Source: Schmidtea polychroa
Lineage: Eukaryota
DNA length: 64,000 nucleotides
Direction: 5' to 3'
NCBI GenBank assembly: GCA_044892525.1
Contig: CM097886.1
Coordinates: forward strand, 132,556,001-132,620,000
The translations under genes were made by a program, and so were the position numbers. A model generated the notes under the pieces. That model was not told where the DNA came from. It saw nothing but the letters and a program-made list of their open reading frames with translations, and ran no database searches. Of the stretch, positions 5,635 to 61,839 are shown one piece after another. How positions within the stretch are numbered: position 1 is the first letter of the stretch; each line of letters begins with the position of its first letter.

Positions 5635-6369
5635 TCATTTATTAATATTAAACAACCCTGGGATCCAATATGAACGCCCACTATAATCATCAATCCACGC
5701 AATTCCTTCCTTAATTAAATATTCAACTGCTTGCTGTGATCTTTCTTCACTCCAATTAAGCTTTTCTGAACACAAAACAATATCGATTCGGCCATTTTGA
5801 TCTTGAGCAAATTTCAACAAATTTGTTTGATCCATATTCAACTCACCAGGTACAGATTGAACTAATTGCCGGTCTCGAGATAATGTGATTAGAGAAAATC
5901 CATTACCCAGAATTTTAATAGATTTGATAGATCTAATAACATCGTCTTTGCAAATAGTTTCTATTTCCATTTTGCTGCGGGTTCTATTCAACCTTGCCAC
6001 TAAATCATCGAGATCCATCAATCCCCCGTTATATTTAGATGTTGCCATTGTAATTTCAATTATCCGAATAGCCAAATGATAATAAAAATCACCAACACCA
6101 AGCATTTCTGCCCAAAAGCCTTTGCTAGACGCTAATGGATCAACCCCTATGGATGAACACATAGATTGAAATTGTGAACGAAATTCGGGATTCCTTTTTA
6201 TTTCGTTCTTATGTTTGACAGCAAACTCTTCTAAATGCGTTTTGAAAGATTCAAACTGTTTAACCAAACTAGCAAAATTTAATTCAGCAATTTCATTGGC
6301 CTTACTTTTGTATCTCGCTGCTGCTGCTTCTTTGTTTTTAATAGCAGCTATACCAACATTTCTACGCAT
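5635..6369 (-). CDS. SNF8: ESCRT-II subunit SNF8/VPS22/EAP30, intronless, 244 aa
   Basis: MRRNVGIAAI N-terminus, FKTHLEEFAVKHKNEIKRNPEFRSQFQSMCSSIGVDPLASSKGFWAEMLGVGDFYY, VQSVPGELNMDQ and GIAWID..YWIPGLF are characteristic; full length. Confidence 0.96.
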   Translation of the reverse strand: MRRNVGIAAIKNKEAAAARYKSKANEIAELNFASLVKQFESFKTHLEEFAVKHKNEIKRNPEFRSQFQSMCSSIGVDPLASSKGFWAEMLGVGDFYYHLAIRIIEITMATSKYNGGLMDLDDLVARLNRTRSKMEIETICKDDVIRSIKSIKILGNGFSLITLSRDRQLVQSVPGELNMDQTNLLKFAQDQNGRIDIVLCSEKLNWSEERSQQAVEYLIKEGIAWIDDYSGRSYWIPGLFNINK

Positions 6370-7681: not shown

Positions 7682-8513
7682 TTTAAAAATGTAAAATTAC
7701 ATATTAAAACATATAAATTAAAAAATATTAAATTAAATTATTATTTTAAAATGAAATGTAAATTAAATTTTTAGACAGTGTTATCAAAATCTAAAAATTT
7801 TTTAAAATTCAAATGACTTAATTAAAATAAGCTTAATTAGCAGGGTTACAATTCAGTTTGATTTTGTTTGAAAATATTTTTAATTCCAAATAGGTCTAGA
7901 TCGTGGGTGGTCAACAGGCAAACGCATTTATAAATTATTAACATTGCACTCAAATTCAGAGATTACAATGGTGTAAAATTAAACCGGTAAATATAGAGCC
8001 GAGCCGTGGATGCATTGGAAAATGTTTTGAAACCAGAAAGAAGAACAAAATTCATCATGTTCTCACCCGTTTCTACCTCTATGTGAACCTGACTTTGCTA
8101 TGTTGGGGTTCGTTTAGAGTGGCACAAAAGAAATATGTATATGCAAATCGATTAAATGTCAAAACTTATAAAAATTCAAAATTCATTATTTAAAACTTTA
8201 AAAAATGACGTATTTTCAGAAAACAGGAATTGTGGATGGCAATTAATGAGATAAATTCAAATACGATAGTGTAAAATTAATGAGGGTCCCGAGAATAAGA
8301 TATTCAAAAAATACTTATTAATTTAAAATAATTTAGTAGCTATGTGGAAAACCCGAGCCATGTGAAGAGACCGAGTGATAATTTAAAAATTAATGAGATC
8401 AACACATCCTCAAGAAATCAATAAAGAAATTAACTTTTTGAATATTAAATAAGTCGAAATGCAGAAAACTAGATGTTGCTTTCCTAATTGTCTTGTTTTC
8501 AACAAAATATACT

Positions 8514-9029
8514 TTATATAATTATGTTGGTATTTGATAATTGAATTATCGTGTTTGCGAAAATTGGTGTTAATTTTACACTATAAAAAGCATGGATAAT
8601 AGTGGTCAATTGCAGCATTGTCGAAGAGAAAATTCCGTAGAGAATTATTCCAAGAATTTTCAGAGAAAAGAATGAAGTTAGAGCTAGTGAGTCAGCTTTC
8701 CTTTTGAAAATACCTGCCATGAGGCATTTATTTAAAGTACATGTAAAAATTAAAATATTCTTAGCAATCTTGTTAGAAATTGTAATGAAATTAAATAAAG
8801 TCTATTGTATTAGGTGTCATTGTTTTAATTCAACTAAAGATCCTATGGAGTTAGAGTGTATTACCAACTTTACAATGATTACCCAATAAATATTAATGGG
8901 CACATTGCCAAATACGCAAGTGCCTTGCCACCTTGACACTATTTGCTCACAAGATAACATAAAATGGTTTTTATGGTAATTCAAAAGAACAGCTGCAATG
9001 AAAAAATAAAACACAGATCCTATGAACAT
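8514..9029 (-). pseudogene. Hydrophobic multi-TM reading frame broken by two in-frame stops
   Basis: ORFs 8817-9029 and 8514-8720 are in the same frame, separated by TGA and TAG; about four hydrophobic segments and an SCEQ...C loop after the first. Confidence 0.3.
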
Positions 9030-9755
9030 ACAGATTTAAACATATTTTACAAATAGTTACGACAGAGTTGATAATTTTTATTTACGATAATCTTAGCAAT
9101 AGTTAGTTATTAGTCGTTGGTTACATTAGATTTATTACTGTCATACATAATACGACAGAATAACTTTATAAATCATTAATAAATTACGAATATATACTTT
9201 ATATTGTTGGGCCAAACTTCGAGAGTGTTGGAAATCAGGTTAGGGATGAATAAAAGGGATAAAATAAATTGCACGAAAATAGCGGAAAAATATAAGAACA
9301 ACTAAATTGGATAACAATAAAAGAAATAAGAATATAAAGGGAATAAAAATAACTAATAAAATAATAAAATTTATAAGACGAAAAATAAGATGAAAAAAGA
9401 AAATTACCCAACACACATAATAGCAGAAGGAAATAAAATAATAAAATTTAAGGAAAATAAACAAGAAATCAGGAAATAAAATAGAAATAAAACCATTTTC
9501 AAATAGATGTATAGGCTAATTAAAACAAAAAATTATACTATAACCAAATAGCAATAAATTCGCAGGAAAAACAGGAGAAAAATAATAAAAAATAGGAAAA
9601 TAAATAAAATAATAATAAAAATAAGAAAAGTCATTAAAAACTAGCATATTACATAAAAAAAACATAAAAATAATAATAAATAATAACATTACACACAAGT
9701 CGCGTCCTGATTGAACGAAGAATAGTATAAAAGGAATGTGAAAAATCTGTAGAGT

Positions 9756-9870
9756 ATCATTTTTAACCCGAACTCTACAGGTAAGAAATTCTTTGTAATT
9801 ATCATTTTTAACCCGAACTCTACAGGTAAGAAATTCTTTGTAAATATCATTTTTAACCCGAACTCTACAG
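9756..9870 (+). repeat. 45-bp tandem repeat, about 2.5 copies
   Basis: Unit atcatttttaacccgaactctacaggtaagaaattctttgtaa(t/a)t starts at 9756, 9801, 9846; gives the 15-aa repeat CRVRVKND.YKEFLT in minus ORF 9516-9953. Confidence 0.9.
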
Positions 9871-10195
9871 GGACGACATTCCAGAATCACTTCTAACCGA
9901 AACTCTACAGGAACCACTTTACAACCGACCCGAACTAAATAGCAGCGTAACATTTGTACTTACAACTCGACAACAACATTTACCAGGATCCAACTAAGCC
10001 AAGGAAGAAATTCGATTAAAATCTGATACTCGAAAGCCTGATTTTCTATACTCTCGAAGGGAATCTTTAGTAAGTATGTTGACTCATTGAATTTTAGTTG
10101 AATTTTATTATGATGCGACTGCAAATCAAAAGTCAAAAACATTTTAGTTCAATAAAATTTTATTTATGACACGACGACTCTCTTTCTCTATGGTG

Positions 10196-10396
10196 CTGGC
10201 GACGATGTCGTCAGGGAGTCCGATATGATGCGGCGAATTTGGATTACGAAGAGGATATGCAAGCGAATGCCTGAATATGAAAACTTGAATCGAAAATGTT
10301 GCATGAGTGAGGAGTGTTATATGCTCCAAGTGATGGAGGTACAATGATTATTGTCAGGAGGCATCATATCCGACACTCATACGGCGTCGTCGCCAG
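10196..10396 (+). other. Long stem-loop (arms 10196-10231 / 10361-10396)
   Basis: ctggcgacgatgtcgt pairs with acggcgtcgtcgccag (16 bp, two G-U); gatatgatgc pairs with gcatcatatc. Confidence 0.75.
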
Positions 10397-10526
10397 GTAA
10401 TTAATATTTTTCAATTGATAAATATGTTTCCTGAAGTTGTATTATTTATAAGATTATTCCAATTATTTTTCTGAGAGAGTCAGTGATGATAGAGGTATTG
10501 AGTAATGATGGTAGAGATAGATTCGT

Positions 10527-10588
10527 CCCTCCTGACGGTCCAAGAGCGGTGGCAGAAATGTATGCCGTTCTTGGGTGGGTCAGGAGGG
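10527..10588 (+). other. 62-nt hairpin
   Basis: ccctcctgac/gtcaggaggg, ccaagagc/gttcttgg and ggca/tgcc stems. Confidence 0.75.
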
Positions 10589-11498
10589 GTGAGGACATCT
10601 AGCGAACGACAGAAATTGGTTGGGAAAAGTCCTTGCATCGAGTGCGATCAACTACTTTTGTCGTCGAACGGATATTCCAGGAAAATGAGTAGCCACGAAG
10701 ATAAATCCCCAGAGAGCTCCAGAGAGATTTCGAATTGAACCCTCTCAGCACTATATTCCAATCGTCGATTGATTGCGCTTGAAAATTAGTATCCACTTCT
10801 TCTTGCACTCCTCGAAAAATCGTCGACTGAATATCCAATCGCTAGGAGTCGGTAGTTGTATAAAAATTCTAACGAGGCGCGCCGGAGATATCATATAGTC
10901 CGAGATCTTCTAGGATGTACATCGCAGACGGTAGCAACTAGCTCCATTTTTCTTGATGACTATCGGGTTCGAGTGAACGTATCGATAAATCTTGGCAGGT
11001 CGTTATCAGCGCTAGTAAGCCAACCCAGACAACATGATAAATGTTCTTAATAATTAATCAAAGTGATTACTGTAACCTGAGAGAAATTTATCATCGCTAT
11101 CATCGAGTAAACACCGATTCGTTTCCTCGTAGCTTAACACCGAACACTGCAGACGACCAGGAATGCTTCGATAAATTATCCAGCGTGTAGATTGCGAAGG
11201 AAGGCCCTCGAGTGAATGAGAATACAACACTTATCGCAATGTCAATAGAGTAGGGAAAATCCGATTACAAAGGCAAGATTTATCCGATCGTCTAACTGCT
11301 AGTCTACATACTCACAGTCATTGATCTCCTATTATCACAACGACCACTCTTTATGTCTGTCTGCGACAGCCGGCAGTGAGGCTGAACGTCACGATTGATA
11401 AAACTGACGACTCGTACATGCACCCAACAACTTTTCCTCGATGAAATAAAAAGTAGTCTACATCATTAGCATGATAACTGTTTTCTGTAACTTCATCT

Positions 11499-11521
11499 AA
11501 AAAAAAAAAAAAAAAAAAAAA
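11499..11521 (+). repeat. Poly(A) run, possible retroposition tail
   Basis: 23 consecutive A, about 50 nt after AATAAA at 11445. Confidence 0.6.
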
Positions 11522-12187
11522 TCAAATTTTATTTCAATAAATTGGCGGGCCACTTGGCCAAAAAGGGGAGAACTTCTCACCCTTGGAGTTCTGCAGCTTT
11601 TAATCTTTCAACTGCTATTGCTGGAATTGAAACTCCCGCAATTGTACGTGGTTACAGACGGGATAAGCGGAGTTGATCGGATTGGTAGTATTGTCGAAGT
11701 CTGAGTTAGCGTTGACAATTGAGTTAACCGTCTCGATCAATTGATTTAGGGCATCAGGGGTAAGGTTCTGATTGAAGAGATTAGGTTGCAGATGATGATT
11801 TTATCATAAGTATAATTTTCGGAAGTTTCTGGACAAGATTGATATTATTGACGGGTTTTTTCGGTCCGCCAATTGAGAGGAGTACCGGATCGTACGGGAT
11901 AATATCTGAAATAAATAAATGTCGGGGCAGGAAGGCTCCCTTGCAAATCTATATAGCGCTTATTATAATACTTATTATATTATATATTGTAAGGAGTTGG
12001 TGAAGGTTGGGACAAGTATAGATAGTAGTATTAGTTGGTAGTATTAGTGATTATAGTAGCGATAGTATAATAAAGATCATCATAGTATTGATAAGAACAA
12101 CTAAAAAGACCACCAAATAGGCAGAACCCCTACAAGGATTCCTACATAGACCCATTCGGTGATTGGCACACGCAGTACATTATTAAT
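11522..12187 (-). mobile_element. Possible degenerate non-LTR retroelement fragment or 3' region
   Basis: Broken frames (FISDIIPYDPVLLSIG; TPDALNQLIETVNSIVNANS) loosely recall the APE-RT linker of LINEs; ends ...gaaataaaatttga(T)n on minus. Confidence 0.3.
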
Positions 12188-12359
12188 NNNNNNNNNNNNN
12201 NNNNNNNNNNNNNNNNNNNNNNNNNNNNNNNNNNNNNNNNNNNNNNNNNNNNNNNNNNNNNNNNNNNNNNNNNNNNNNNNNNNNNNNNNNNNNNNNNNNN
12301 NNNNNNNNNNNNNNNNNNNNNNNNNNNNNNNNNNNNNNNNNNNNNNNNNNNNNNNNNNN
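12188..12359. other. Assembly gap (others at 28379-28570, 62605-62799, 63478-63622)
   Basis: N runs. Confidence 0.99.
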
Positions 12360-14880
12360 ATAATAATATTACAACATTAGGAATATATGGTCAGAGAGAG
12401 TTTAGATTTTAATTTTTAAAGTATTTTAGTTATTTATTGGATTTATTTACTGGAGGATATTTATATATTTGATTAATAATAGTAAATAATATAGATAATA
12501 GCCATAGTACACAAATAGAATAGGATAATGCTCTGAGTATATATTATATATCAATATCTGGGTTTCAAGATTGGTTTACCAAGAGACAAAGAAAATTGTA
12601 GAGGGGTGATATATAATAACCATAGAATACAAATAAATAAAAGATGCTTTGACTACAAAAAGATAAATATATAAGTATAATTAATTTTTATAAATATGTT
12701 GACGATATATGTGGTAGCTGCTATTGATTGCAGCTACGCAAGCTTTTTTGGCTAGTTCCTTTATTTCATTATTGGATAAGCCGATAATTTTAAGTATCGA
12801 GTCATTATTTTTGTCCCATGAACCAAGGGTGCCAACTACCAGGGCATGTAGAGTGTGTGGGCATTTATGGAGTCTACCTATTTCCTCTCCTAGTTCCTTA
12901 TATTTATTATAGTTATTTCTCCTAGAGTTGTCGTAGTTTTCTCTGGAGTCGAAAGGAACCTTAATGTCTAAGATATGGATAGATTTGTTACGCTTAGATT
13001 TTAGAAGAAGATCGGGCTTAAGGGTGGAATTGGTACCTTCAGGTACTTTCTCTATGTCTACTTCATAGTTAATAGATATAAAGAAGTTTGCCACAGTTTC
13101 TAGGACATTATCATGCTTATTTCGTCTTGCATTAATACGTGCTTGGCAATGATTAAAGATGTGTGCAGGTGTTTCTGGGTGGGCATGGCAGTGCCGGCAG
13201 AGTATAGATTTATTAGTCTTTAGGCGGTGTGGTGAGTAGTTCAGTTTTAGAAGGTTGTTGCGTGCGCGAATAAGAAAGAGGAATTGGGCATCAGGAAGGA
13301 TGTCACTTTTAAAGAAATAGTCGGCGATGTTGCTTTCGCTAATTGCCTTTGCCATATAGCCCTGGCATTTCATCGCACACCAACGTTCAGCATGAATAAG
13401 GCCAATAATAGAGTGTAGTTCAGCTGAGGTTCTATCCACATTACCGAGGGAGAAGTAATTGATACGACTCTTATATTTTATTTCAAGCTGTAGAAGGTCC
13501 TCAAGCATTACAATTTTGGTAGATATACCGTAGTTATGAAGCAGACGACGGGCGGATTTTTTAAATTTTGAGAAGATGGAGAAAGTTGGGTAGCTTTTAG
13601 AGAGTTGGCCATTCAGCCAGGACAGTGCCACATTTAAATCTCCTTGTCCCCTAGCCTCGATAAGTTCAGCAGTAATGAGAGTCTTAAAGTTAAGATCGCT
13701 AGAGTTTAAAGCCCTGATAAGTTGTACGATGCTTTGAATAAGGTATTCGTCAATGGATGATACAAGTCCAAGACCACCAAGCTTGCAAGCTGCATATAAG
13801 AAGTTGTCATTCAGCTGCATTATCTTATCTCCAATGGATCTTTTAATACCCTGTTTTATTTGCAGGTCGAATCCATATTGTTGTATTTCAGAGTTACGAA
13901 GGATGTTGCGCGGAGAGTCAAGGATGTTGTGGTTAATGACACAATTTCTAAAAGTAAAGTTCAAGCGGGAGTGGATGAATACTTTAAAGGCATTAATTTT
14001 TTGCGAAGGATGTAGATGAGAGTTGAGAATTTTGTTTGTGTCTATAATAGCGGAGTCTAGTCTTTCTTTGATACAGTGTTTAGTTTTATGGGAGAAGTCA
14101 ACTCCAAGATATCTGTACATATTAGAATCATCAATTTTTGGAAGGGTTTCGCCATAGAGTAGAATAGGTTGGTAGTTGCAGTCGTGATCAACATGAAAGT
14201 ATCCGGATTTCGAGGGTTTAAAGCGTAGGTTGACCTTTGTTGCAAGGGAGACAGTGAGAGATAGGGCCGACTTGATATTGGAGTAGGAATCAGATATAAG
14301 CACTATATCATCGGCATACGCAAGAATGCTAATGTTGTGATTATGAAAGAGAAACGGGTGAGTTTGTAAGACATTGCGGAGTATGAAGTCAATGGATAGA
14401 CAGAACAGAGTCATGGACAAGGGGCAGCCTTGTTTCACACCTTTATAAATTGGTGTATAATCAGATTTTTCTCCCTCACATTCAAAGTAAGTTTGTACAT
14501 TGTTGTACATGTCCTGAAGAAGAGCAATAGTGGTGTTGTGTTGCCTAGAGAAATCCATTAGTATTACTACATCTACTGATTCATGCACACATTAACCTTA
14601 GGTTTTGGCGGACTCGAATACAGTAAGTAGATTACTGCCACTATTACATACTCATAGAAGGTGAGGAAGCGAGACTACTTGTGTGATCAGACAGTGAGAT
14701 TACGTCACCCTTGAACACTACGAAGTTCTAGATTGTTCAATAGTACCCACTGAGGATTTATCCGGTAACGCACATATTCCATCAGAAATAGAATCGTTCG
14801 CCAACATACATCTACGAGGAAAATAAAACATACTGGCACACAGCTAGGTGTAGTCATGACGATATTGATAGCGCAGGATT
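12360..14880 (-). mobile_element. Extent of the RLE retrotransposon copy
   Basis: Broken RT-like frames continue upstream (CWRTIL, WVLLNNLELRSVQG, LLTVFESAK); the 3' region runs into the N-gap. Confidence 0.55.
12681..14588 (-). CDS. RT-CCHC-RLE ORF of an R2-superfamily non-LTR retrotransposon (NeSL/Utopia-like), 5'-degenerate
   Basis: RT motifs GVKQGCPLS, LAYADD, YRYLG; HPSQKINAFKVF; zinc knuckle CRHCHAHPETPAHIFNHC; RLE core KHDNV...KPDLL...ILDIKVPFD...NKYKEL. Confidence 0.9.
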   Translation of the reverse strand: MHESVDVVILMDFSRQHNTTIALLQDMYNNVQTYFECEGEKSDYTPIYKGVKQGCPLSMTLFCLSIDFILRNVLQTHPFLFHNHNISILAYADDIVLISDSYSNIKSALSLTVSLATKVNLRFKPSKSGYFHVDHDCNYQPILLYGETLPKIDDSNMYRYLGVDFSHKTKHCIKERLDSAIIDTNKILNSHLHPSQKINAFKVFIHSRLNFTFRNCVINHNILDSPRNILRNSEIQQYGFDLQIKQGIKRSIGDKIMQLNDNFLYAACKLGGLGLVSSIDEYLIQSIVQLIRALNSSDLNFKTLITAELIEARGQGDLNVALSWLNGQLSKSYPTFSIFSKFKKSARRLLHNYGISTKIVMLEDLLQLEIKYKSRINYFSLGNVDRTSAELHSIIGLIHAERWCAMKCQGYMAKAISESNIADYFFKSDILPDAQFLFLIRARNNLLKLNYSPHRLKTNKSILCRHCHAHPETPAHIFNHCQARINARRNKHDNVLETVANFFISINYEVDIEKVPEGTNSTLKPDLLLKSKRNKSIHILDIKVPFDSRENYDNSRRNNYNKYKELGEEIGRLHKCPHTLHALVVGTLGSWDKNNDSILKIIGLSNNEIKELAKKACVAAINSSYHIYRQHIYKN

Positions 14881-16192
14881 TGGATAGTTATACTGCAATT
14901 TATAATAATATATTAAACCAATATATTTTTCGATTTTCTTTCTTTTTTATAGATCTGTTCAGACTCAATACAGCGCAAATAGATACCGACAACGTCGAAC
15001 TATTGTCCCGTAGCCCGCGCTCACGTGACTCAACAAAACATAATAATAAACTATAACCATCATCTCATGGGAAATACAGTAGAGAGGATAGAATTTTTAG
15101 AAATGAAGGAGTAAGCGTGTATTAGATGGGGATTTGCCAGTCGAATAATGGACCTAAAGTTGAGTTTATGTTAAACAAAATAATTATTATGAGTGTTTCC
15201 GATTTTTTTTTCTTTCTTCCTAATTTGCATGGATGGAGAGGATCAATTTGAATGCTTGTGAGTGAACGGGTATGGATGGAAACAAAGGGTATAAATGTGT
15301 TGGGCTAAATTTTGAAGTGGAGAAAACTGGATCAAATAGAGAAGCGAACCTCGAAAAAATAAACGAAATACGATAAAAAATAAATTACCATCAAATCTCA
15401 GTAGTAAATAGGGAGAAACAATAAAATACCAATAAAAGAAATAGGAATAAGTAACCAAAATGAATAAAACCCCTAAGATTTGGAAATAAGACAAAAGGGA
15501 AATGATTTAAAGCACACAGCGGATAAAGTAGAAATAGAATAAGCAAAAAAGTGAGAAAAATAAACGAGATATTAAAGAAATAAATAAAAATAAAACCATC
15601 CTTAAGTCTAATTAAAACAAAAAATTATATTACAATAAAGTAGCAATAAATCCGCAGAAAAAATAGGAGAAAAAATAACAAAAATAAGAAAATGAATAAA
15701 ATAATAATAAGAAATAAGTTAAGTCATTAATTATAATAAAAACATAAAAATAATAATAAATAACGAAATTACAAACAAGTCGTGTCCTGATTGGACGAAA
15801 AATAATATATAAGGAACGGAAAATATCTGTAGAGTACCACTTTTAAAAAATACTCTACAGGTAAAATTTTGTTTGTTATTGCACTACTTTTAAAAAATAC
15901 TCTACAGATTTTACAGACTTCGGAATATTTAACTAGATCATCCTACAGCGAACTATTTCAGAGACTACGAAACCAAATCTAGGAAGGAATATATAGTAAT
16001 CAAACGACAAGTCTATTCAGGACAACTTCCAAATTCAATCGATTTAATCCAGTTTTCGAAACCCGAGGTATGTCTCAGCAGTTGGTTTATGTATGGTTGT
16101 TAGTTTAATTTAGTTAATTTTTGTAAATATAATTAAAAAACAATTTCATGCAATAAATTTATTTAAATGAAAAACAGTCTTTCTTCATGGTG

Positions 16193-16428
16193 CCGGCGAC
16201 TGTACCATCTGGGAGCTTCAGGTATGATGTGGACGAGCAAGAGGTATGTCACGGTGGAGAGCACGGCCACGAGGAATTTTCATAATATGCATCCAGAAGA
16301 TGTTGCAAAATTTAGATACTTAGAGAAAACGATAATAGTTTATGAGGTGTTCACCAACGTTGCGATCAAACGTGCGATTGTATGGAAGAGAGACATCATA
16401 CTTGGAGCCCAAATGATATGGTCGCCGG
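16193..16428 (+). other. Long stem-loop, homolog of 10196-10396
   Basis: Arms 16193-16230 / 16393-16428 give about 34 bp (ccggcgac/gtcgccgg, ggtatgatgt/acatcatact). Confidence 0.75.
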
Positions 16429-16527
16429 GTAAATTTTATTTATTCATTTACCCATCATTCATTTTTGATCATTATATAAATTTTGCACAAATTGTTGATC
16501 TAACTGAATGGAAAAGAGTTGATTGGT

Positions 16528-16589
16528 CCCTCATGACGGTGCAAGAGCGGCGGCAGAAATGAATGCCATTCTTGGGTGTGTCATGAGGG
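16528..16589 (+). other. 62-nt hairpin, homolog of 10527-10588
   Basis: ccctcatgac/gtcatgaggg, a compensatory C-G to A-T change relative to copy A. Confidence 0.75.
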
Positions 16590-17929
16590 GTGAAGAAACT
16601 CAGGAGGTCGAAATCCAGTTGAGAAGTGAAATTTCCTTCATCGAGTGCGATCGTTTATGGAGCATCCCATCGTTTCATTCAGTCACACTGAGATCTCTAA
16701 CAGTTGTAAAGAGGATTTAAATTTCAAAGGAGGATAATTCAGATTGAGATTGATATCGATGTTCATACTGATTTGATAAGAATCCACATAAATAGAAGAA
16801 ATTTTTATTATACTCAGCCTGTCAGTCAACGTAGTTAGGAAGAGCACTTGTCGACCATAGTTTGCAAGAAAATCCAACAATTTTTCTGTAAGGTATTGCA
16901 TTCTCGAGGATTCTATCTGATTTGTGTCGCCAGGACGCTAGCGTCTACATCCATCGTCGATGTACGCTTAAAATTGAACTGTTGTCCTTGAATTGCCGAT
17001 ATCAGTGATAAGTAATTTCTCTCTGACGGGGAAGTAAACATCTCGCAACAAAATTATCAAAATACTCACTTTAAGCTCGAAGGAGATAGTTGCCAACGAT
17101 AACAAAATTCGTCGAATTATCTTAGCCAGCTTGGAGTTAGCCGACGTGGATAGCTGATAATGTCTTGGAAGGGGAGATAGTGTATCGGTTTTCTGGTAAG
17201 AATTGTCGATCGAATGAGTCGATAATCGTTGCCCTAAATCAACATCGTAAAAATGAGTTGGATAATAGAATCAAGCTTACGCAGTAACTTCACTGATTTG
17301 TCGCCTATTCATGATGCTTAATCTGATTCTCCCGATCTGTCTACGGCTGCTGCTTAGTTAAGGAAACTATTATGCAATCCATATTATTCTGACTTAGGAA
17401 TGCACATACACACGTACACACCCGTCAATTCTGCACAAGGCAGCATAAAGATAAATCTACGATTAGGGCAGAAAATATTTTGGTGATGTAATGATTGTGT
17501 GATAGCATGAATTGTCACAAGACAGTGAGACGGTAGGCAGGAGTAAGGGAATGGATTTCCTCAACTCAACTTGACATTTAAGAACCTCTCCTAATCGTAC
17601 AAACAATTGTTCGATGTAATAGCCAATACAAAACTGCAGATGCAGCCAGGAGTATCCGCACACCTAAATGTCCATTCATAATGCATGACTACAGGTAAAC
17701 GTCTCCATGACGACGATTACGACACATTATTTAAATTAATTAGATTTTAATTTAGAGCTTAATTTTAACTAATTTTTGATTATTTTTATAATTTTGAGTG
17801 AGTAAAAAACATAAGTAACTATCAGCCGCCGCGAATTAATTTTCTATAATTTTATGTACGCCTACATCGACAGAAGACTGCAACGAGATCGGAAAAATTT
17901 TAATAATAAAGACATAATAAGGGGAACCA

Positions 17930-18130
17930 GGTTGAAGGGAATAGAGGAAAGAACGAGTTTTTTATGGAGATTGTCCAATCCGAAAGTAAATCCTAGGGGT
18001 GAGGCTTAGATAGAGAGAATTATTTGCGTGAATCACCCGTTTTCTTTTCTTAATTTACATGGGTTGGGTGAAGTAATTTGAATGCTTACAACTAAACGAC
18101 TGTGAATAGGGATGGATGATGAGATCTGTG
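17930..18130. repeat. Third partial fragment of family 2
   Basis: ttcttttcttaatttacatgggttgggtgaagtaatttgaatgctt (about 18040-18090) matches ctttcttcctaatttgcatggatggagaggatcaatttgaatgctt (about 15210-15260). Confidence 0.5.
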
Positions 18131-18241
18131 GGCTATCGCTGTATGGAATGTTTGATGAAACTACGAACCCATGTCCCAAAAAATTGACTATATCATACTA
18201 ATAAATGTTTCGAATAAACATAAAAATGATTGACTTTCTAG

Positions 18242-18991
18242 ATGACTACACCGTCCAACAATGCCAAAGAACTTCGCCCGTGTTTTTCTTGCGCTGACAA
18301 GAACGCGGATATCGCCCAACTTCACTTGTATATCGGGGCCCTCAAGAAGCGGATAGACCTCTATGAAGGGACGTGGTTCTCCCCGCTACAGATGAAGGAG
18401 GAGCGAAGTAAGATCCTCAGATTAGAGCACTGTAGAGACAGCCTCCTGGAGGAGAGCCGCTGCCAAAGACTCACAATAAAGGCCCAGTCCGAAGCCCTCC
18501 ACAAGGTCTATACGGAGGCAGAACTAGCCAAACGGGTGCGCGAATTTCCCGTCTTGGATGGAACAAACGTTTTCCCTCTCCACCACCAGTCCTCTACATC
18601 TTCCACCTCAAATTGCCAGGGGCATGGCTCACATCTGCCGCCCATCCCAGGCCCAGTACTGTCGGGTTATCGACTAATGGCAGGCGGTTCTTCTGACCCA
18701 ATTCTTGTGGCACCTACCGCCACTACGGCTGTAGGGGATAATCTGCCGCCCCGCAAACGCAAGCGACCAACCAGAGCTGAGAAGAATCAAAAACGCAGAG
18801 ATGCAATGGCAGCACTCGAGGCGTCATTATCTGCGGCGCAGTCGAAAATAACAGAAATATCGTCCACCCATTCAATCCCCACGAAAGAAGTTTTTCGCAT
18901 TGTCCCGGCCGAAGGTATCAAATTTATATCGGACTGTCGGCTACCTGTCGATATCGATGCGATGATTTCCGAAGGAGAAAGTTTCGCGTAA
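18242..18991 (+). CDS. Novel 249-aa protein (CxxC, coiled coil, EGTWFSP, basic NLS-like PPRKRKRP)
   Basis: Intact ATG-TAA ORF, GC-richer than host DNA; the tandem paralog differs mainly at synonymous sites. Confidence 0.85.
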   Translation: MTTPSNNAKELRPCFSCADKNADIAQLHLYIGALKKRIDLYEGTWFSPLQMKEERSKILRLEHCRDSLLEESRCQRLTIKAQSEALHKVYTEAELAKRVREFPVLDGTNVFPLHHQSSTSSTSNCQGHGSHLPPIPGPVLSGYRLMAGGSSDPILVAPTATTAVGDNLPPRKRKRPTRAEKNQKRRDAMAALEASLSAAQSKITEISSTHSIPTKEVFRIVPAEGIKFISDCRLPVDIDAMISEGESFA

Positions 18992-19164
18992 TCCAGCTTA
19001 CGGTCGATCTCGATTCTTTCTTTCGAATTGTAAATTGATTTTCGATGTCGAAAAACTGACAGCCTTGTGTATTTGCAACTGATGTAGATTCTGTTAATTT
19101 AGTAATAGTTGTGTGTAATTTTGTTATGGCTTTAATATATTTTGTTTAATTCCGTTGTAGTAAC

Positions 19165-19525
19165 TCTTCAAAACGCATGATTGTGTAATCTGAGTGACTA
19201 GGAGGATGATGTGGAATGAAAGTAATTAGGGTGAAGGTCGTTCCCTTGGACCAGGATCGGACCGAGATATATGTATGAATGTGGGTAAGTCCTTCTAAGG
19301 CACCGTGGAACCCGAACCGCGAGTGGGTTAGCAGTAGTCCTAAGGCAGGGGCTCACCTGTTAACCAACTCCAACCCGTGTGGGCAGCACCAACGTGGAAC
19401 ATCGCCACGGGCTCACATGAGGGAATATTCATGAAGTCATTTGGAGTATGATCGGGGAAAAGGCCGAGTCGAATGCACGTAATCATAATTCTGGTAACAA
19501 ATATTGTTTTCTCCCCTCATACTCC
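19165..19525. other. Conserved non-coding module 1 downstream of the EGTWFSP ORF
   Basis: Aligns with 20550-20938; 32-nt identical core gtagtcctaaggcaggggctcacctgttaacc (19334-19365); shared hairpins. Confidence 0.75.
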
Positions 19526-19643
19526 AACAATTGTCTGTAAGTGGAATGAGTAGGGGTAATGCCGGACCCGTAAATTTTTATTGTTTTTATAAATCTCGCG
19601 TAAACAGTTTCACGAATTTGGATAAATACTTCTTGATCTTCAG

Positions 19644-20406
19644 ATATCTGCAAAATCCAATACCAATCAAGAGCATCGTCCGTGTTTTTCTTGCGCAGAC
19701 AAGAATGCGGATATCGCCCAACTACATCTATACATCGGGGCACTCAAGAAGCGGATAGATGTATATGAAGGTACGTGGTTCTCCCCGCCACAGATGAAAG
19801 AAGAACGAAGTAAGATCCTGAGACTGGAGCATTGTCGCGACAGCCTTCTGGAGGAGAGCCGTTGCCAGAGGCTGACAATAAAAGCCCAGTCGGAAGCCCT
19901 CCATAAGGTTTATACGGAGGCCGAGCTAGCCAAACGGGTACGAGAATTCCCCGTCCAGGATGGGGCGAACGTTTTCTCCCTTCATCATGGGCCATCTGAA
20001 TCTTCCACTTCAAGCTGTCAGGGGCATGGTCCCCATCTGCCGCCCATTCCGGCCCCAATACTATCGGCTTATCGGCCAATCGACCCTCTGATCCGATCCT
20101 GGCCCCAATCCTCGTGACCCCCGTTGAAAACCCTTCAACAGGAAACATTCAGCCACCTCGTAAGCGGAAGCGGCCAACCCGATCAGCGAAAAATCAAAAA
20201 CGCAGGGACGCAATGGCCGCCCTCGAAGCGTCATTGTCAGTGGCGCAATCAAAATCAACGAGATATCTTCCACGCATTCAATTCCCACCAAGGAGATCCT
20301 CAAAATAATTCCGGCAGAAGGAATTAAATACGTTTCTGATCATTACCTACCTGTCGACATCGACGAGATGATTGCCGAAGGCGATGGCTTTAGTGAGCAA
20401 CTGTGA
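19644..20406 (+). pseudogene. Tandem paralog of 18242-18991 with lost start and two frameshifts
   Basis: ATA (19644) sits at the ATG position; frameshifts near 20075 and 20250; restored C-terminus EISSTHSIPTKEILKIIPAEGIKYVSDHYLPVDIDEMIAEG matches the intact copy. Confidence 0.85.
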
Positions 20407-20549
20407 TCGGTCCCGATCTTCTCTCGTGAACTGACATTGTAAAAGCTGATGGTGTTGTATATAAATATTGAAGGAATCGATGTGTTGATGTTGTAAATGA
20501 TCCCTCGTAATAAATTAATTTTCAATACAAATTTTTGACTTCTTTTGGT

Positions 20550-20938
20550 TATTCTCAACGTGCATGATTCGTAATCTGTTTGAATGCAAGCGTGTTGTAG
20601 AATGATGGTGATTAGGTTTACGGTCGTCCTTTTGGACCAGGGGCGGACTGAGTTACACGTATAGAAGTGGGTAAGACCTTCTAAGGTAAAACCTTCTAAG
20701 ACCTTCTAAGACACCGTGGAACCCGAACCGAGAAGTGGTTAGGAGTAGTCCTAAGGCAGGGGCTCACCTGTTAACCTCTTCCAACCCGTGTGGGCAGTAC
20801 CAACGTGGAACATCACCACGGGCCCATACGTGGGAATATTAGTAAGATCATTTGGAGTATGTCAGGGAAGGGCCTGAGCGGAACGACGATGATTTGTATG
20901 TTTGGTAACAATGTTAATCTTTTTCCCCCGCATACACC
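20550..20938. other. Conserved non-coding module 2
   Basis: Core at 20745-20776; extra local duplication of accttctaag. Confidence 0.75.
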
Positions 20939-21878
20939 ATTAATATAAAATATAAAAGCATTACCAAAAGAAAATACTAAACTTTATTCTTAACGAAATG
21001 TAAATGTGTATTTGATATAAACTATAAAGCAAAAGTACCAGCAAAGAGTCGTATGACAATCCCTCAAAAGTCAAAATCGGCCATTCCCACCAAACGTACC
21101 TGAAATTGAAAATTTATTGTTAATAAATAAATTACTTCCAAGCTAGCCAAAGAAGATTACACCACTCACGACGCGCACAACCGAGGGAGAAGTAAGTAAA
21201 ACGAGAAACTAAGCTCGTCACTAATACTTATTGCCCCAGTGTACCCGAATTTAGTGGTAAATTACCAAAATGGTCTGATTTCATAAATTCGTAGAAAAAT
21301 TAATGTATTAAATTTTGAATTACCATCTAGTGGTAAACAAGATTCTGAAAATTTAAATGATTAAATTAAACAAAGTTAATTGTTAATCAATTTTAGGGTA
21401 TATTTAGTTAAAGTGTAAGATTTACTAGAAATTTACTCAGGACTATGGAATTTCTCTTTAATTAAAAATTAATTTCGGAAATACAGGTTGTAATTGCAGT
21501 CGTTTCTCTAGTCATACAACTTCATTAAATTTTTTAACTAAGTTACAACTATCGAAAATGATTAACTTTGAATGCAAGGTTTTAATTATGAACTCCGTTG
21601 TCCGAGGCCCTTCTTCCGTACGACCTGATCATTATTTTGTAGATTTCTTAATTAAAATATTTTTCAAATTATGTAAATTTCATTTTATAATTAAAAATTC
21701 TGGCAACTACCCACTATTTCCGTCCATCTACCTATGTCCTCGTTGAGTATTTAGAACACTTAGGGGGAGTGATGGCAGAATGAGTTAGTAGGTTTGGGAA
21801 GTAGTCAGTGAAATTCTTGTGCTAAAAGACTCATATCAGTCTTTGTAAGGTGTCCTGATTTCGATTTGTATTGTAGAA

Positions 21879-22235
21879 ATGTCACACTCTGGCGATTATA
21901 GCGATGATGAAGCCTACAGACAAATGATTACGCGGCTCCGGACCCGGTACCCGATTCATGATTGGAATCGGGGGCTGGACTTGGTTAATTACGGCCCGGT
22001 TATCCGGAGTGGCCCAGAGCCCGACGCTCCGGCGTGGGTGAAGAAGGAGCCCACTAACGACTTGTTACGAGAGGCCCGCGATTGAGTGGTTATCGAAGTG
22101 GAGGCTGCCCAAATGCGGCTGAAGAAAATCGAGCTCCAGCTCCGGGCCGAAAAGGAAGGAGTGCCGCTAGAAGAGCTGGAGGATGTAGAAGCGCCCCCAC
22201 GGAAGCGAGGGAGGCCCCGTAAGAACCCAGCATAA
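21879..22235 (+). CDS. GC-rich ORF ending in an AT-hook (RKRGRPRK), with one internal TGA at 22083
   Basis: MSHSGDYSDD...LLREARD*VVIEVEAAQMRLKKIELQLRAEKEGVPLEELEDVEAPPRKRGRPRKNPA; the frame stays open after the TGA. Confidence 0.6.
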
Positions 22236-22493
22236 TCCATCGACAATTTTCCTGCATTTATGACTTGAATTGAACATTTGACTTGTTTAATTGGTGATAC
22301 TTTCTTTGATTTGGTTGTAGTTCGTGTAATAAATTATTTCTTTGTCAAATTATTGGCTTTATAGATTATGGTGTATTCTTGTGATTTAGGAGACCTTTTT
22401 TTAACATCCAACTAATAATTTACGATGAAATTAAACGAATCACCTTTATGTACATGGAAGTGAGTCATAGAATTTGATTGTTGTCTTCATTCA

Positions 22494-22931
22494 GTGTTCA
22501 AATTACTCGAAAATTTACGCAAGGACCGTGAGCAGGCCCAACAACAAGCCGAAGACCTCCGAGGCCGAGTCGAGAAATTCAAAGTGAGGTGCCGAGAACT
22601 CGAGGGCACTTGGTTCAGTCCGGCCGAGATGAAAAAACGAACGACACACATCTTGCAACTCCAGACCCAGGCGGAGCAGGATCAACTGGAAATACGGGCA
22701 CTGAAGTTACAAGTGCGCACGCTCGAGAGCAAACTGAACGAAAGGTTCATTCAGGACACTCTCCGAGAGCAGATTCGCCCGTTACCCGTGGAGCTGGCCA
22801 AGATATACCCACCGGCCCAGGCAAGCAAGCCGAAATGCAAACGGCTAGGGCGGAATACCCGAGAAAAATTGAAAAGGGCCTGGCTGGCCGAACAGGAAAA
22901 GCTGAGAGTCCGAGGCCGCCCACGATCCTGA
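22494..22931 (+). CDS. Diverged EGTWFSP-family coiled-coil protein (probably a 3' exon)
   Basis: CRELEGTWFSPAEMK matches IDLYEGTWFSPLQMK; heptad pattern; starts at a ttcattcAG acceptor with no ATG; ends RGRPRS. Confidence 0.7.
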   Translation: MFKLLENLRKDREQAQQQAEDLRGRVEKFKVRCRELEGTWFSPAEMKKRTTHILQLQTQAEQDQLEIRALKLQVRTLESKLNERFIQDTLREQIRPLPVELAKIYPPAQASKPKCKRLGRNTREKLKRAWLAEQEKLRVRGRPRS

Positions 22932-23059
22932 AGGGTAATTGAGAGTGCGACCCCTCCTGGGTAAAACGGATATTGTAACATTGTGATGCCTAAATAAATA
23001 ATTTTCACCATCTGATGTGTATGTAGTTGAATCTTATGATTGTTGAAATTCGTCTTTTT

Positions 23060-24158
23060 TTACATGACAAAAAAAATATTTACAGAGCTTACCGATACTA
23101 GATGGTTACTAATGTTAATGTTCTTAACTGATTTTACTATACATTTGAATGAATTAAACAAGAAACTTTTTAGCACTCACCCTTTTGATACAGTATCATC
23201 GTTGATCACTCAACGGGTATCAAGCGGAGAAACATTCGTTTGTATTCTGGGTTACGCTGGATACAGCGCGAATAGGGAAAATGAGTGCTTGCCTGTAACC
23301 CACCAAAAACTTCAAATGGAAAATAATGAAAAACTGAAGGAATAAGGTGTGTGTTTCTTGTTTAGTCTCAACCGGATTGGGACCAAATCCTTTTAATAAA
23401 TTTTGATCATGCATTCCACTCTTTAAAACCGATAGAAACGGCCCTTCTATGTGAATTCTCACTTAGTATTTTATAGGTCTTCGACAATATTCCATTTTTT
23501 GACACAACAAGTGTTGGACAGAAACCTGTCACGCCGAATTTAACGAGATTCTTACTAACTACTTTTAAACTAGTTTCAAGCTCCTGTGATAAATCGGAAA
23601 AGTTATATCTGTATCCACCATTAATCTGAATATCGATGAATCCTGGAGATAAAATTGGACTCTGACTATCTTTAACGACATCAGGAGCTCATTTGTCGAC
23701 ATAAAACTGCTCTGAATCTTGAATAGCGCCATCTCTGATCCATAAATCATCCACAATAATTTTGGAATTCAAACAGAGAGAGCAATTAGTAAATTTAATA
23801 AATTGATTTGAAAAAGAAAATTGATGGAAATCTTCAATTTTGTTAACTATCATTACCAAAGTTATTCAGAGTAGGAAAATATTTTCTAGTAAATTATTTT
23901 ACATATATGTATAGTAAAATACACTCAGTTCCACAAGCAAATTCAAAAACAAATATTTTAGCTAAATTCTATATTTTTAAATTCTACACAACTTCCAATT
24001 CAAAGAAGAAATTAATAAATTTAAACAAATCAAAAAAACATAAAATTTTCGAAAAATCTCAAATCAAAGTAAATTAATTATTATTCTTCAACAGTGTGCA
24101 ATGAAAAATTTCAGATAAGGTCAATGTGCCATGAGCTAAAAAAGGTTGAGAACCACTG
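23060..24158 (+). mobile_element. Fragments of a Buster/Charlie-type hAT element
   Basis: ELTDTRWLLMLMFLTDFTIHLNELNKKL (GTF2IRD2-like) and a terminal ggttgagaaccactg at 24144-24158. Confidence 0.45.
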
Positions 24159-36558: not shown

Positions 36559-37042
36559 TATATATATTGTTACAATAAGCTGCTACAACCTTTGTTAGTT
36601 CCAATTCCTCACTAATAACTGGAAATTCTTCATATTCCTTTAGGACAGTGACTCCAAAATGGATTCCCACGGAAGCCCAGGGTTCCATGAGAAACTCAAG
36701 GGTTCCACGGGATAATGAGTTCTAATATTAGATATTGCCAATTTTAAAATTTCTTCAATAAATATTTTTGAATGCAATTCAAATTTTTAGTCCATTCGTC
36801 AAGTTTCATCAAATAAATTGCAACGTACGTTATTAATTTCAGTCAAATTCATCTAAAAATCGCGAAAGATTGGCCTTAACCCCTTAACGCGCACTGACGT
36901 ATATATACGTTCGCGCAAAACCGGACAAAATGTGCAGTGACGTGATAGTTTTTGAATAGTTTTAGTTTATTATTTTTCACCTAATAAATATTATTATTTT
37001 ATTGTTACATTATATTGTTATTTATTGAAATTGGTCCAAATA

Positions 37043-38522
37043 TATAGCATTTTCGCGTTAAATTAGACACTTTCCATTTTAAATTAGACACTTTCGAATT
37101 TGAATTGGACACTTTAAAAGTTAAATTGGACATTAGTTATAACACCCCTACTATTTAATATATGTGTTTTTATAGAAATACTTTATATACAGAACATAGC
37201 AACTAAATTCCCGCCCAAAAATATATAATCGTTTGAAATCATTAATCATGTCAAATGGCCGATATTATGAATTTTCAGACGAATCAAACATTGAAGAAAC
37301 TGAAATCGATGGTGCGGATGTGCATGAGAATCGCGAATCTCCTATAAAGAAATCGTATGCCAAATCCACCCGGGACGTTAAAATGGTGCTAATAAGCATG
37401 GTCACAGTGGGCGGGAAAACAATAAGGGAAGCAGCAGCTGCTTGCAGAATTAATGAGAGCACCGCGAGAACGATAATAAACAACTACAAGCGTAAAGGAA
37501 CTTTTATTGTAGGAAAAAGAGGTGGTAACAATAAAACAAAAATTACGGATAATATACTAGACCGAATTGAATTTTTTGTGGAGAGCCATAATCAAACTAC
37601 TTTAAAAATGATAAAAAACAAACTTAAAGCCGAAGGAGTGTCTTTATCAACCACGTCTGTGTCTAAATGTCTTGAGAAGCTTCGTATTACATGTAAAAAG
37701 GCTTCTCGTGAACTTGAACGAGTAAATTTACCAGAAACCATTGAAAAGAGACGACGATACGCATTGGATTTTGCCCGAAATGCTCCCGCGCTGAAAAAGA
37801 AATGCATTTTTATAGACGAATGTGGTTTTAATCTACATATTCGTCGAACTACCGCCCGCTCAAAAATTGGAACAAGTGCAAATATCGTGATGCCAACAGT
37901 GAGAGGTCGAAATGTAACTGTTATTGCAGCAATGAATTCAAACAAAATTATTCATAGCCGCATTGTTGACGACAGTACTTGTACAAGTTCAATATTCGGT
38001 GATTTTTTAATGGAGCTAATTGCGATTATTCAACGCGATGAGATTTACAATGGTACATGGATAGTTTTAGATAATGCTCAAATTCATAAAACTGATTATA
38101 TACGAAACATCTTTACCGATACCGGATTTGTATTGAAATTTCTCTCACCCTATTCATACATGCTGAATTCCATCGAAAATGCATGGAGTAAGTTGAAGAG
38201 TTTCGTCAAGAATATTTTATCATCGAATGTGGATAATGTAAATCTACGGGATATTATCTGTAATGGCTTGAACAATATTAACCCGGGTGATTGTTGTGGA
38301 TATGTTATGCATATGATGAATAACATTTCAAAAGCAGTGGCAGGAGAGCTATTTAAAATTTGAAAGATCATGTTTGATTAAAGTCGTCTTATTTGAAATA
38401 TAAATTCACGTCTTTTACAGTTTTATAACTAGTGTCCAATTTAACTTTTAAAATGTCCAATTCAAATTCGAAAGTGTCTAATTTAAAATGGAAAGTGTTT
38501 AATTTAACGCGAAAATGCTATA
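37043..38522 (+). mobile_element. Tc1/IS630-like transposon with about 100-bp TIRs
   Basis: 37043-37143 is inverted at 38422-38522, with internal aattagacacttt repeats; TA flanks. Confidence 0.9.
37233..38363 (+). CDS. Intact DDE_3 (Tc1/IS630) transposase (likely ATG 37248)
   Basis: FIDECGF, LDNAQIH, LSPYSYMLNSIENAWSKLK motifs; N-terminal HTH region; no stops. Confidence 0.92.
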   Translation: MKSLIMSNGRYYEFSDESNIEETEIDGADVHENRESPIKKSYAKSTRDVKMVLISMVTVGGKTIREAAAACRINESTARTIINNYKRKGTFIVGKRGGNNKTKITDNILDRIEFFVESHNQTTLKMIKNKLKAEGVSLSTTSVSKCLEKLRITCKKASRELERVNLPETIEKRRRYALDFARNAPALKKKCIFIDECGFNLHIRRTTARSKIGTSANIVMPTVRGRNVTVIAAMNSNKIIHSRIVDDSTCTSSIFGDFLMELIAIIQRDEIYNGTWIVLDNAQIHKTDYIRNIFTDTGFVLKFLSPYSYMLNSIENAWSKLKSFVKNILSSNVDNVNLRDIICNGLNNINPGDCCGYVMHMMNNISKAVAGELFKI

Positions 38523-38599
38523 TATTTTCTTAAAGAAAAAAAATTGATTTTTTTTGGTCGTTTTTTTTAAAATTGTGCGTTAAGGGGTTAATAATATTT

Positions 38600-61283: not shown

Positions 61284-61839
61284 TATATAATTATGATAAT
61301 ATTTTATATCAATTTTATATTAAAAATTTGTAAATCTATTCGAATTATTATTTAACGCATATCAGAAATGATCACTTAATATATCGCAATTTTATATGTG
61401 GAGCAAAATCATGACAACTCCGGTATATGACATAATGAAAGATGTCGCAGTGTCTTCATTTGCCTTCTCGCATGCATCATAAAAGATTTGAGCAACTATT
61501 ACGTAAAATCATTCACTTTTATATTCAATTTTATATTCAAGGGTCTATAGATAGATCAAGGGATAAATTATTAAATTAATTAAATTAGAATAAATTCATA
61601 AAATAAAATAAAAATTTAAAAATTTAAAATTATTTTTAGCCATTAAAACCACTTGAAAATATAATATTTTAAATTTTACTTACTATTTAAAATAAAATTT
61701 AATTAATTATTAAAATACAAACTTGATAAAGGCTGGGCCAAAACATTGCACTTTTTAAATTGTTGATCTATATTACAATGAAAATTATTGAATTAAAAAA
61801 AATATCCAAGATGAAATCAGAATCAAAAAAATATGTCAA

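Follow-up and report, generated by a model that had tools for sequence, protein, structure and literature searches.

A covarying long-range stem between the likely primer-binding site and a predicted splice donor of a repeated, probably LTR-type retroelement

Two diverged copies of a repeat unit of about 3 kb were found in the window (the whole stretch of 64 000 nt analysed here), and both hold, at the same place, a long-range stem whose pairing is kept by compensatory changes on both arms. The stem occupies a fixed position between AATAAA and (C/T)A-TGG on one side and GTAA on the other, its loop is freely replaced and the unit has a fixed TGTTGGG left end. The unit is probably the 5' LTR and leader of an LTR retrotransposon. 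Our preferred reading, to which we assign a probability of about 40%, is that the stem is a retrovirus-like leader domain whose looping-out would seat a U1-bound splice donor beside the 5'-LTR poly(A) signal and so suppress premature cleavage. The parts of the stem are

10196-10231 (+), 5' arm of the stem in copy 1 (fold and alignment)
10232-10360 (+), variable loop of copy 1, 129 nt, C-poor and ATG-rich (sequence comparison)
10361-10396 (+), 3' arm of the stem in copy 1 (fold and alignment)
16193-16230 (+), 5' arm of the stem in copy 2 (fold and alignment)
16231-16392 (+), variable loop of copy 2, 162 nt (sequence comparison)
16393-16428 (+), 3' arm of the stem in copy 2 (fold and alignment)

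The two stems comprise 32 and 33 pairs across 36 homologous columns, and their arm sequences are 58-68% conserved between the copies. Identical pairs account for 19 columns, double changes for seven and single, pair-preserving changes for five; three columns are paired in one copy only and two are unpaired in both. The changed pairs include T-A to C-G at pair 2 and C-G to T-A at the inner pair. With the 2-nt indel placed by MAFFT, six double changes were counted among 34 pairs. The original prediction had named these two changes, and had described diverged but still paired arms, a poorly conserved loop closed by a long stem and GTAA directly 3' of both stems; each of these was recovered. When substitutions were placed at random, a null that assumes independent sites and by itself does not separate RNA selection from two DNA inverted-repeat subfamilies, the mean was 23.4-23.7 pairs, compared with 32-33 observed (p 2-3e-5), and seven double changes had a p of about 1e-4. 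Slid registers were 29-49% paired versus 94% in the true register. In a letter-shuffle control on the MAFFT alignment, which is weak with two sequences, the observed values were reached by 18 of 500 and 37 of 500 shuffles. The arm duplex energies are -52.1 and -49.6, compared with a best value of -35.7 and a median of -7.6 for 3090 36-nt pairs sampled at like distance in the window.

Folding of the plus strand gave -75.6 kcal/mol for copy 1 and -79.5 kcal/mol for copy 2 (z -3.54 and -3.62), with 0 of 200 and 1 of 200 shuffles as good as the native sequence. The minus strand gave -60.3 and -62.1 (z -4.15 and -3.05); because these z values are similar to those of the plus strand, z alone does not settle the choice of strand. 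In folds of up to 1.4 kb, beginning at the predicted start, the stems remain, at a mean pair probability of 0.92-0.94. No homology above shuffles was detected between the two loops or between the two post-stem spacers, and a six-frame comparison of the two units gave no common coding frame across the stem or leader. A search of positions 8000-24000 with the Rfam covariance models returned two matches (E 4.1 and 7.9), neither on the stems. Downstream of each stem lies a predicted splice donor, followed by a second conserved hairpin.

10397-10402 (+), predicted splice donor CAG/GTAATT, 8 of 9 consensus letters (sequence)
16429-16434 (+), predicted splice donor CGG/GTAAAT, 7 of 9 consensus letters (sequence)
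10526-10589 (+), second hairpin of copy 1, GAAA loop, a candidate packaging or dimerisation signal (fold and alignment)
16527-16590 (+), second hairpin of copy 2, GAAA loop (fold and alignment)

The second hairpin lies about 100-130 nt after the donor and is the best-conserved part of the unit (88% identical, 26 pairs, one double change). GNRA loops are an RNA motif, and the loop of this hairpin is GNRA in all five variants (GAAA in both window copies, GCAA twice and GAGA in other copies), reading as GNRA on the plus strand only. An excess of G-U over C-A pairs in the stem had also been claimed; the excess stands, at 7 versus 2 rather than the 6 versus 2 first counted, although it is not significant alone (p 0.09). 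For the stem and second hairpin together the numbers are 15 versus 3 cells, or 12 versus 3 by distinct column, and the p of 0.004 is overstated. Covariation, the G-U excess including the second hairpin, the GNRA loops and the absence of a target-site duplication support selection on pairing in plus-strand RNA. Where the original prediction had left the choice between RNA and single-stranded DNA, the former is supported and the latter disfavoured.

Copy 1 of the unit extends over 9204-11500 and resumes at 14591-15297, and copy 2 starts at 15298 and reaches at least 18110. Both are cut off by other insertions.

10590-11500 (+), rest of the leader of copy 1, first piece, weakly homologous to 16686-17491 (z 6.1)
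11501-14590 (-), inserted non-LTR retrotransposon splitting copy 1, reverse transcriptase with zinc-binding domain, ORF 12681-14591; not the element's own
14591-15297 (+), leader of copy 1, second piece, homologous to 17451-18109 (z 9.8) and cut off by copy 2
16591-18241 (+), rest of the leader of copy 2, to the predicted splice acceptor before the first ORF (sequence)

The non-LTR insertion (11500-14590) has a plus-strand poly(A) run at 11499-11521, located at its left junction rather than on the expected side, and contains an assembly gap. Other copies of the unit were sought among assembled contigs of four sequencing runs, aligned to positions 9000-17700 at 80% likeness; the contig evidence comes from those listed, namely 40 of 1862 letter differences, 15 of 103 joints, 24 of 1520 loose ends and 32 of 5414 pieces. 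One X7 contig joins 14541-15018 to 10576-11194 without the non-LTR insertion. The unit belongs to a multi-copy family. Summed depth, which gives no copy number, peaks over promoter, stem and second hairpin. Three of the 15 joints listed among 103 (10243-10358, 16229-16389 and 16309-16392) keep both arms, with the loop absent or replaced. At 10213, where copy 1 is mismatched, most other copies have T (2399 of 2600 in X1 depth), which pairs with A10379. In copy 2, two G-U pairs would become Watson-Crick pairs with an X1 variant found behind 16217.

The likely LTRs, with their promoter motifs and poly(A) signals, and the likely primer-binding sites (PBS) were placed as follows.

9204-10190 (+), likely LTR of copy 1, starting TGTTGGG, its tentative right end TA rather than CA; contigs begin or cease to match at 9204-9205
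15298-16187 (+), likely LTR of copy 2, TGTTGGG to CA; eight X7 contigs are unlike it before 15298 (agreement 0.49)
9710-9763 (+), promoter motifs of copy 1: ATTGA at 9710, TATAAAA at 9726, initiator-like at 9757; 79% identical to copy 2
15790-15843 (+), promoter motifs of copy 2: ATTGG at 15790, TATA at 15806, initiator-like at 15837; predicted start at about 15838
10151-10156 (+), AATAAA poly(A) signal of copy 1; the pyrimidine tract after it lacks AG (sequence)
16152-16157 (+), AATAAA poly(A) signal of copy 2; here too the pyrimidine tract after it lacks AG (sequence)
10191-10203 (+), likely PBS of copy 1, TGGTGCTGGCGAC, first five bases unpaired and the remainder in the stem (sequence and fold)
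16188-16200 (+), likely PBS of copy 2, TGGTGCCGGCGAC, directly after CA (sequence and fold)

At both left ends (9204 and 15298) TGTTGGG fits TGTTRNR and the flanks are variable; the A-rich stretch that follows is 81% identical between the copies. The TATA-initiator spacing is 30-33 nt in both copies, and the 310-390 nt between initiator and AATAAA contain several predicted donors. Promoter motifs and AATAAA sit inside the repeat at homologous places in both copies, as they do in an LTR, and animal LTRs are described with a TGTTRNR start and AATAAA near the 3' end, in the same order (PMC3601003). The LTR class and the right end are both inferred. The right ends, TTCTTCA and TTCTCTA, do not fit YNYAACA and there is no longer inverted repeat; no flank switch at 16187 was seen among the 24 of 1520 loose ends listed, and X1 summed depth shows no clear fall after 16187, falling instead after the second hairpin. 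A run search listed 15 rows; nine contain part of the stretch and none is on record as RNA. In X9, 15 of 30 bins show depth, most of it over the LTR, with little beyond 16275; that X9 is RNA is a guess, and its gaps in coverage carry no weight. No gag, pol or second LTR linked to the unit was found in the window. A gag-pol of the order PR-RT-RH-IN linked to the LTR, as would mark Gypsy/Burro (Metaviridae), is likewise missing from the window, which truncation may explain.

An AATAAA upstream of the promoter is also conserved (15645-15663 and 9553), and four X9 contigs are A-tailed 13 nt after it, behind 15663; these tails may reflect an alternative poly(A) site or oligo-dT internal priming on A-rich sequence and, lying upstream of the predicted start, are unexplained by the leader model. 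Among tandem units of 45 nt (9755-9923 and 15835-15907), every unit contains ACTCTACAG together with an initiator-like motif, and GTAAG comes after the first two, so that the repeat can be read as GT-AG mini-introns placed back to back without an intervening exon. The 3-kb unit was also considered, and rejected, as one LTR ending in CCCAACA at 11423, which is not conserved in copy 2 and has no TGG after it.

At the end of the likely LTR, both copies read (C/T)A, and TGGTGCYGGCGAC comes directly after it. Exact matches to TGGTGCYGGCGAC occur in these two places only, and with two mismatches three were found versus 0.18 expected. Its first eight bases match His/Phe-type PBS motifs (PMC4724089), and retrotransposon PBSs are usually 8-18 nt (PMC7773854). 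The window holds no tRNA genes. TGGTGCYGGCGAC is likely to be the PBS. The stem starts at PBS base 6, and PBS base 7 changes together with the 3' arm. The five PBS bases left unpaired exceed the single-stranded tRNA tail by one base.

In an LTR element the poly(A) signal is present twice, once at each end, and the 5' copy must be silenced. In our preferred reading, the closed stem would loop out the 200-236 nt from PBS base 6 to the predicted donor, so that the AATAAA-to-donor distance, 240 and 271 nt in linear sequence, would become 39 and 35 nt. U1 on the donor, about 35-40 nt from the 5'-LTR AATAAA, would suppress cleavage there. The stem and donor lie outside the LTR as placed and would be missing at the 3' LTR, where cleavage must occur. 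The same stem would mask most of the PBS until primer loading, and the five unpaired PBS bases could serve as a toehold for the single-stranded tRNA tail. A distance-bridging role would account for the start of the stem, for its end and for the freedom of the loop to change. The original suggestion of a splicing-control stem comes close to this reading, although it missed the setting, that is, the likely LTR retrotransposon leader with its PBS and donor.

Known systems bear on this proposal in both directions. In HIV-1 the poly(A) site of the 5' LTR is suppressed, in a distance-dependent manner, by U1 at a donor 195 nt downstream and outside the LTR; a large RNA fold in HTLV-1 bridges a similar gap, and a foamy-virus study concluded that folded, not linear, distance matters (PMC3694450). 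Against the need for a bridge, HIV-1 works at 195 nt without one and suppression in MoMLV is donor-independent (PMC3694450). The HIV-1 leader is arranged in the same order: AATAAA, LTR end, PBS, then a donor that lies outside the LTR, some 200-270 nt downstream, and a hairpin (PMC3694450). It differs in that here one long stem closes the interval from PBS to donor and covers most of the PBS, the host element is an invertebrate retrotransposon and the U1 effect is putative. In R, upstream of the poly(A) signal, there are predicted donors of equal or greater strength (9781, 9826, 15861 and 16068), so the one downstream may be dispensable. A local 8-bp hairpin predicted for copy 2 would cover the post-stem donor and use up the two outer stem pairs. 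No GT-AG joint from the post-stem donor was seen among the 15 of 103 joints listed.

A possible alternative, which we hold to be rather unlikely as the main explanation, is primer gating or packaging. The stem would mask the PBS from base 6 onward against tRNA fragments or premature priming; with the second hairpin it would form a packaging or dimerisation domain, and use of the donor would make spliced RNAs lose that hairpin. The stem does start exactly where the single-stranded tRNA tail would end, 3' tRNA fragments are known to target the PBS (PMC7773854) and the 5' PBS of Ty3 is paired intramolecularly (PMC11381356). On the packaging side, MMTV uses the PBS and a hairpin whose fold is destroyed by splicing (PMC8096270), and here the best-conserved element, the second hairpin, lies downstream of the donor. 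Gating, however, needs neither a stem of 36 columns, nor a free loop of 130-160 nt, nor an end exactly at the donor. The Ty3 5' PBS is comparable in being short (8 nt) and strongly inclined to intramolecular pairing (PMC11381356), but it has a short partner helix, no splice donor and a bipartite PBS, and the description drawn on contains no covarying stem of 36 columns. Gating or packaging and poly(A) suppression are not mutually exclusive.

The stem could instead lie inside a longer LTR, as a fold resembling the Rex response element (RxRE) of HTLV-1 that would bridge AATAAA to a U-rich downstream element, bind an arginine-rich protein encoded downstream (Rev/Rex-like export), or both; we judge this unlikely. 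It would suit the U-rich character of the 30 nt that follow the stem (14 and 15 T, versus 7 of 30 after CA), the depth that stays high through the second hairpin, the second conserved CA-TGG at 15228/18058 and the arginine-rich motif in relatives of the downstream ORF, one of which has a sub-threshold Pfam REV match. The HTLV-1 fold also cancels about 200 nt for 3'-end processing and has an arginine-rich accessory protein nearby (PMC3694450). Yet the AATAAA of HTLV-1 is upstream of the start site, whereas here it is 310-390 nt downstream, and the 35-39 nt before the stem are already enough room for cleavage. This reading leaves the conserved unpaired TGGTG after CA without an explanation, conservation is lacking in the loop, to which a protein would bind, and in the ORFs of the window itself the basic motif is weaker and a REV match is absent. 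As that source describes it, the RxRE lies inside R and activates cleavage, whereas the present stem is most likely outside the LTR.

Ribosome shunting, in which the stem would hide an upstream AUG cluster from scanning ribosomes as in pararetrovirus and foamy-virus leaders, seems improbable. The stem-loops hold 11 and 9 ATG, compared with 4.3 and 4.9 expected (Poisson p 0.001), an A/U-rich stretch follows the stem, and shunt leaders likewise have a large AUG-holding stem-loop near the poly(A) signal, donor and PBS (PMC5902531). The six-frame translations, however, show no conserved short ORF with its end close upstream of the stem, such as shunt leaders have, and in copy 2 a further 1.8 kb with 33 more ATG precede the first, main ORF.

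Priming without tRNA is similarly improbable. A cut at the donor (splicing step one) would leave a 3'-OH paired on the PBS as primer, a route unlike that of Tf1, and the arms would co-vary because the primer is encoded in cis. LTR elements that self-prime exist, the 3' arm stops right at the donor and is paired with the PBS, and the joint change at PBS base 7 would follow. Synthesis would nevertheless start five bases past the CA end, and the canonical CA-TGG is retained. The persistence of G-U pairs means that the arms are not merely copied from each other, which counts against self-priming, and orientation and composition stay the same in the loops, similarity to the reverse complement being absent (z 0.3-0.4). 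In Tf1-type self-priming the 5' end of the transcript is complementary to the PBS; such a complement is missing near the predicted start, the best match being 8 of 12 in both copies. If self-priming were true, this would be an animal LTR retroelement family that dropped its tRNA primer.

A DNA-level inverted repeat is very improbable. The stem would then be a MITE or TIR remnant, the arms of differing TIR subfamilies co-varying in the absence of selection on RNA; TIR elements are abundant in the window and the minus strand folds well too. As the original prediction had held, the stem does not behave as an independent MITE, and it is no free-standing hairpin gene either: a target-site duplication was looked for and none was found (GGTG is on the left and GTAA on the right in both copies), the two subfamilies share one position and have homologous flanks, no empty-site joint is present among the 15 of 103 joints listed, and the G-U excess and GNRA loops are strand-specific. 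Retention as a dsRNA substrate (a source of siRNA or miRNA, or an ADAR editing site), earlier offered as a possible function, is as improbable and finds no support as the selected function: a long-range duplex in a transposon transcript could yield dsRNA as a by-product and planarian ADAR2 edits mRNAs (PMC8797187), but the arms, 58-68% conserved, are unlike guide RNA, the longest unbroken run is 16 bp with G-U pairs included, there is no Rfam match, a transposon gains little from its own siRNA, and the ADAR2 study reports one edited site only in a transposon-like transcript (PMC8797187).

Several further candidates were rejected. The second hairpin is not a SECIS element, its ATGA being Watson-Crick paired, and a hammerhead/Penelope repeat is contradicted by the TG end and the absence of an Rfam match. 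The stem as a stand-alone exon fails on the pyrimidine tract before it, which has no conserved AG, and a start-site hairpin considered as a TAR analogue has its 5' arm upstream of the predicted start. A pattern search with the motif of the second hairpin matched 0 viral contigs. The PBS-to-donor pattern gave one metagenome match, a GC-rich bacterial locus without a long stem that was judged to be chance, and the short PBS motif gave at least 120 phage matches, none similar to the units; three of these had a short partner arm, which is to be expected where DNA is GC-rich.

In invertebrate LTR retrotransposons, silencing of the 5' poly(A) signal, primer gating and the sorting of genomic from spliced RNA are known mostly via retroviruses and yeast Ty elements. 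In the family described here, which has very many diverged copies, one covarying stem ties together the PBS, the donor and the poly(A) signal. That number of diverged copies makes the structure provable by covariation alone, and the 3'-end model is testable on existing RNA data. The literature consulted describes no covarying PBS-to-donor stem for flatworm retroelements; the original description of Burro may cover the LTR and PBS of the present family. The Burro/GYPSM1 giant gypsy-like planarian elements share with this unit a likely planarian host, a long leader, tandem repeats and accessory ORFs (PMC6431247). They differ from it as described there, since the LTR here is about 0.9-1.0 kb as placed, no polyprotein is linked and the ORF family matches no named Burro domain. 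The unit is at most a candidate member of Gypsy/Burro.

The first ORF after the leader of copy 2 is probably the accessory gene of the element.

18242-18991 (+), small coiled-coil ORF with a basic motif, 249 codons

Its relatives in the window are at 19647-20117 (or to 20400) and 22464-22931 (+). A profile of these three found 14 proteins among 1.84 billion; ten are fused to unrelated cellular-gene domains, three have no Pfam domain and one has a repeat-protein match taken as chance. The joining to unrelated gene domains suggests a transposon-borne ORF pulled into gene models. No Gag or Pol domain was found in any of the 14. An arginine-rich motif is present in most aligned relatives, and the REV match noted above has E 0.0013 and 19.1 bits versus a cut-off of 22. 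For this ORF, none of 2217 candidates was a longer homologue, viral contigs contained no relative, and there was no Atlas match of 0.9 or more and no PDB match under E 0.35; its exact sequence is absent from the protein collection. The family is unnamed and is marked by a GTWFSP motif and a basic or arginine-rich tail.

After each small ORF copy, at 19300-19440 and 20712-20850 (+), lies a third conserved multi-helix RNA fold with 41 predicted pairs, two double and three single pair-preserving changes and no Rfam match; it is a candidate export or processing element. A small acidic ORF with one in-frame TGA is located at 21879-22234 (+), and its end carries an AT-hook-like RGRP motif. An intron-free SNF8/Vps22 gene at 5635-6369 (-) shows at most 56% identity among the 120 matches listed, the best (53-56%) being from molluscs, annelids and flatworms, and the window is AT-rich animal DNA. 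A Tc1/mariner-like element, assigned to this family by the look of its protein, occupies 37038-38527 with inverted repeats of 108 nt (96% complementary) and an open frame of 387 codons. An AT-rich satellite array of 12/36-nt units, with an assembly gap, spans 61700-63000.
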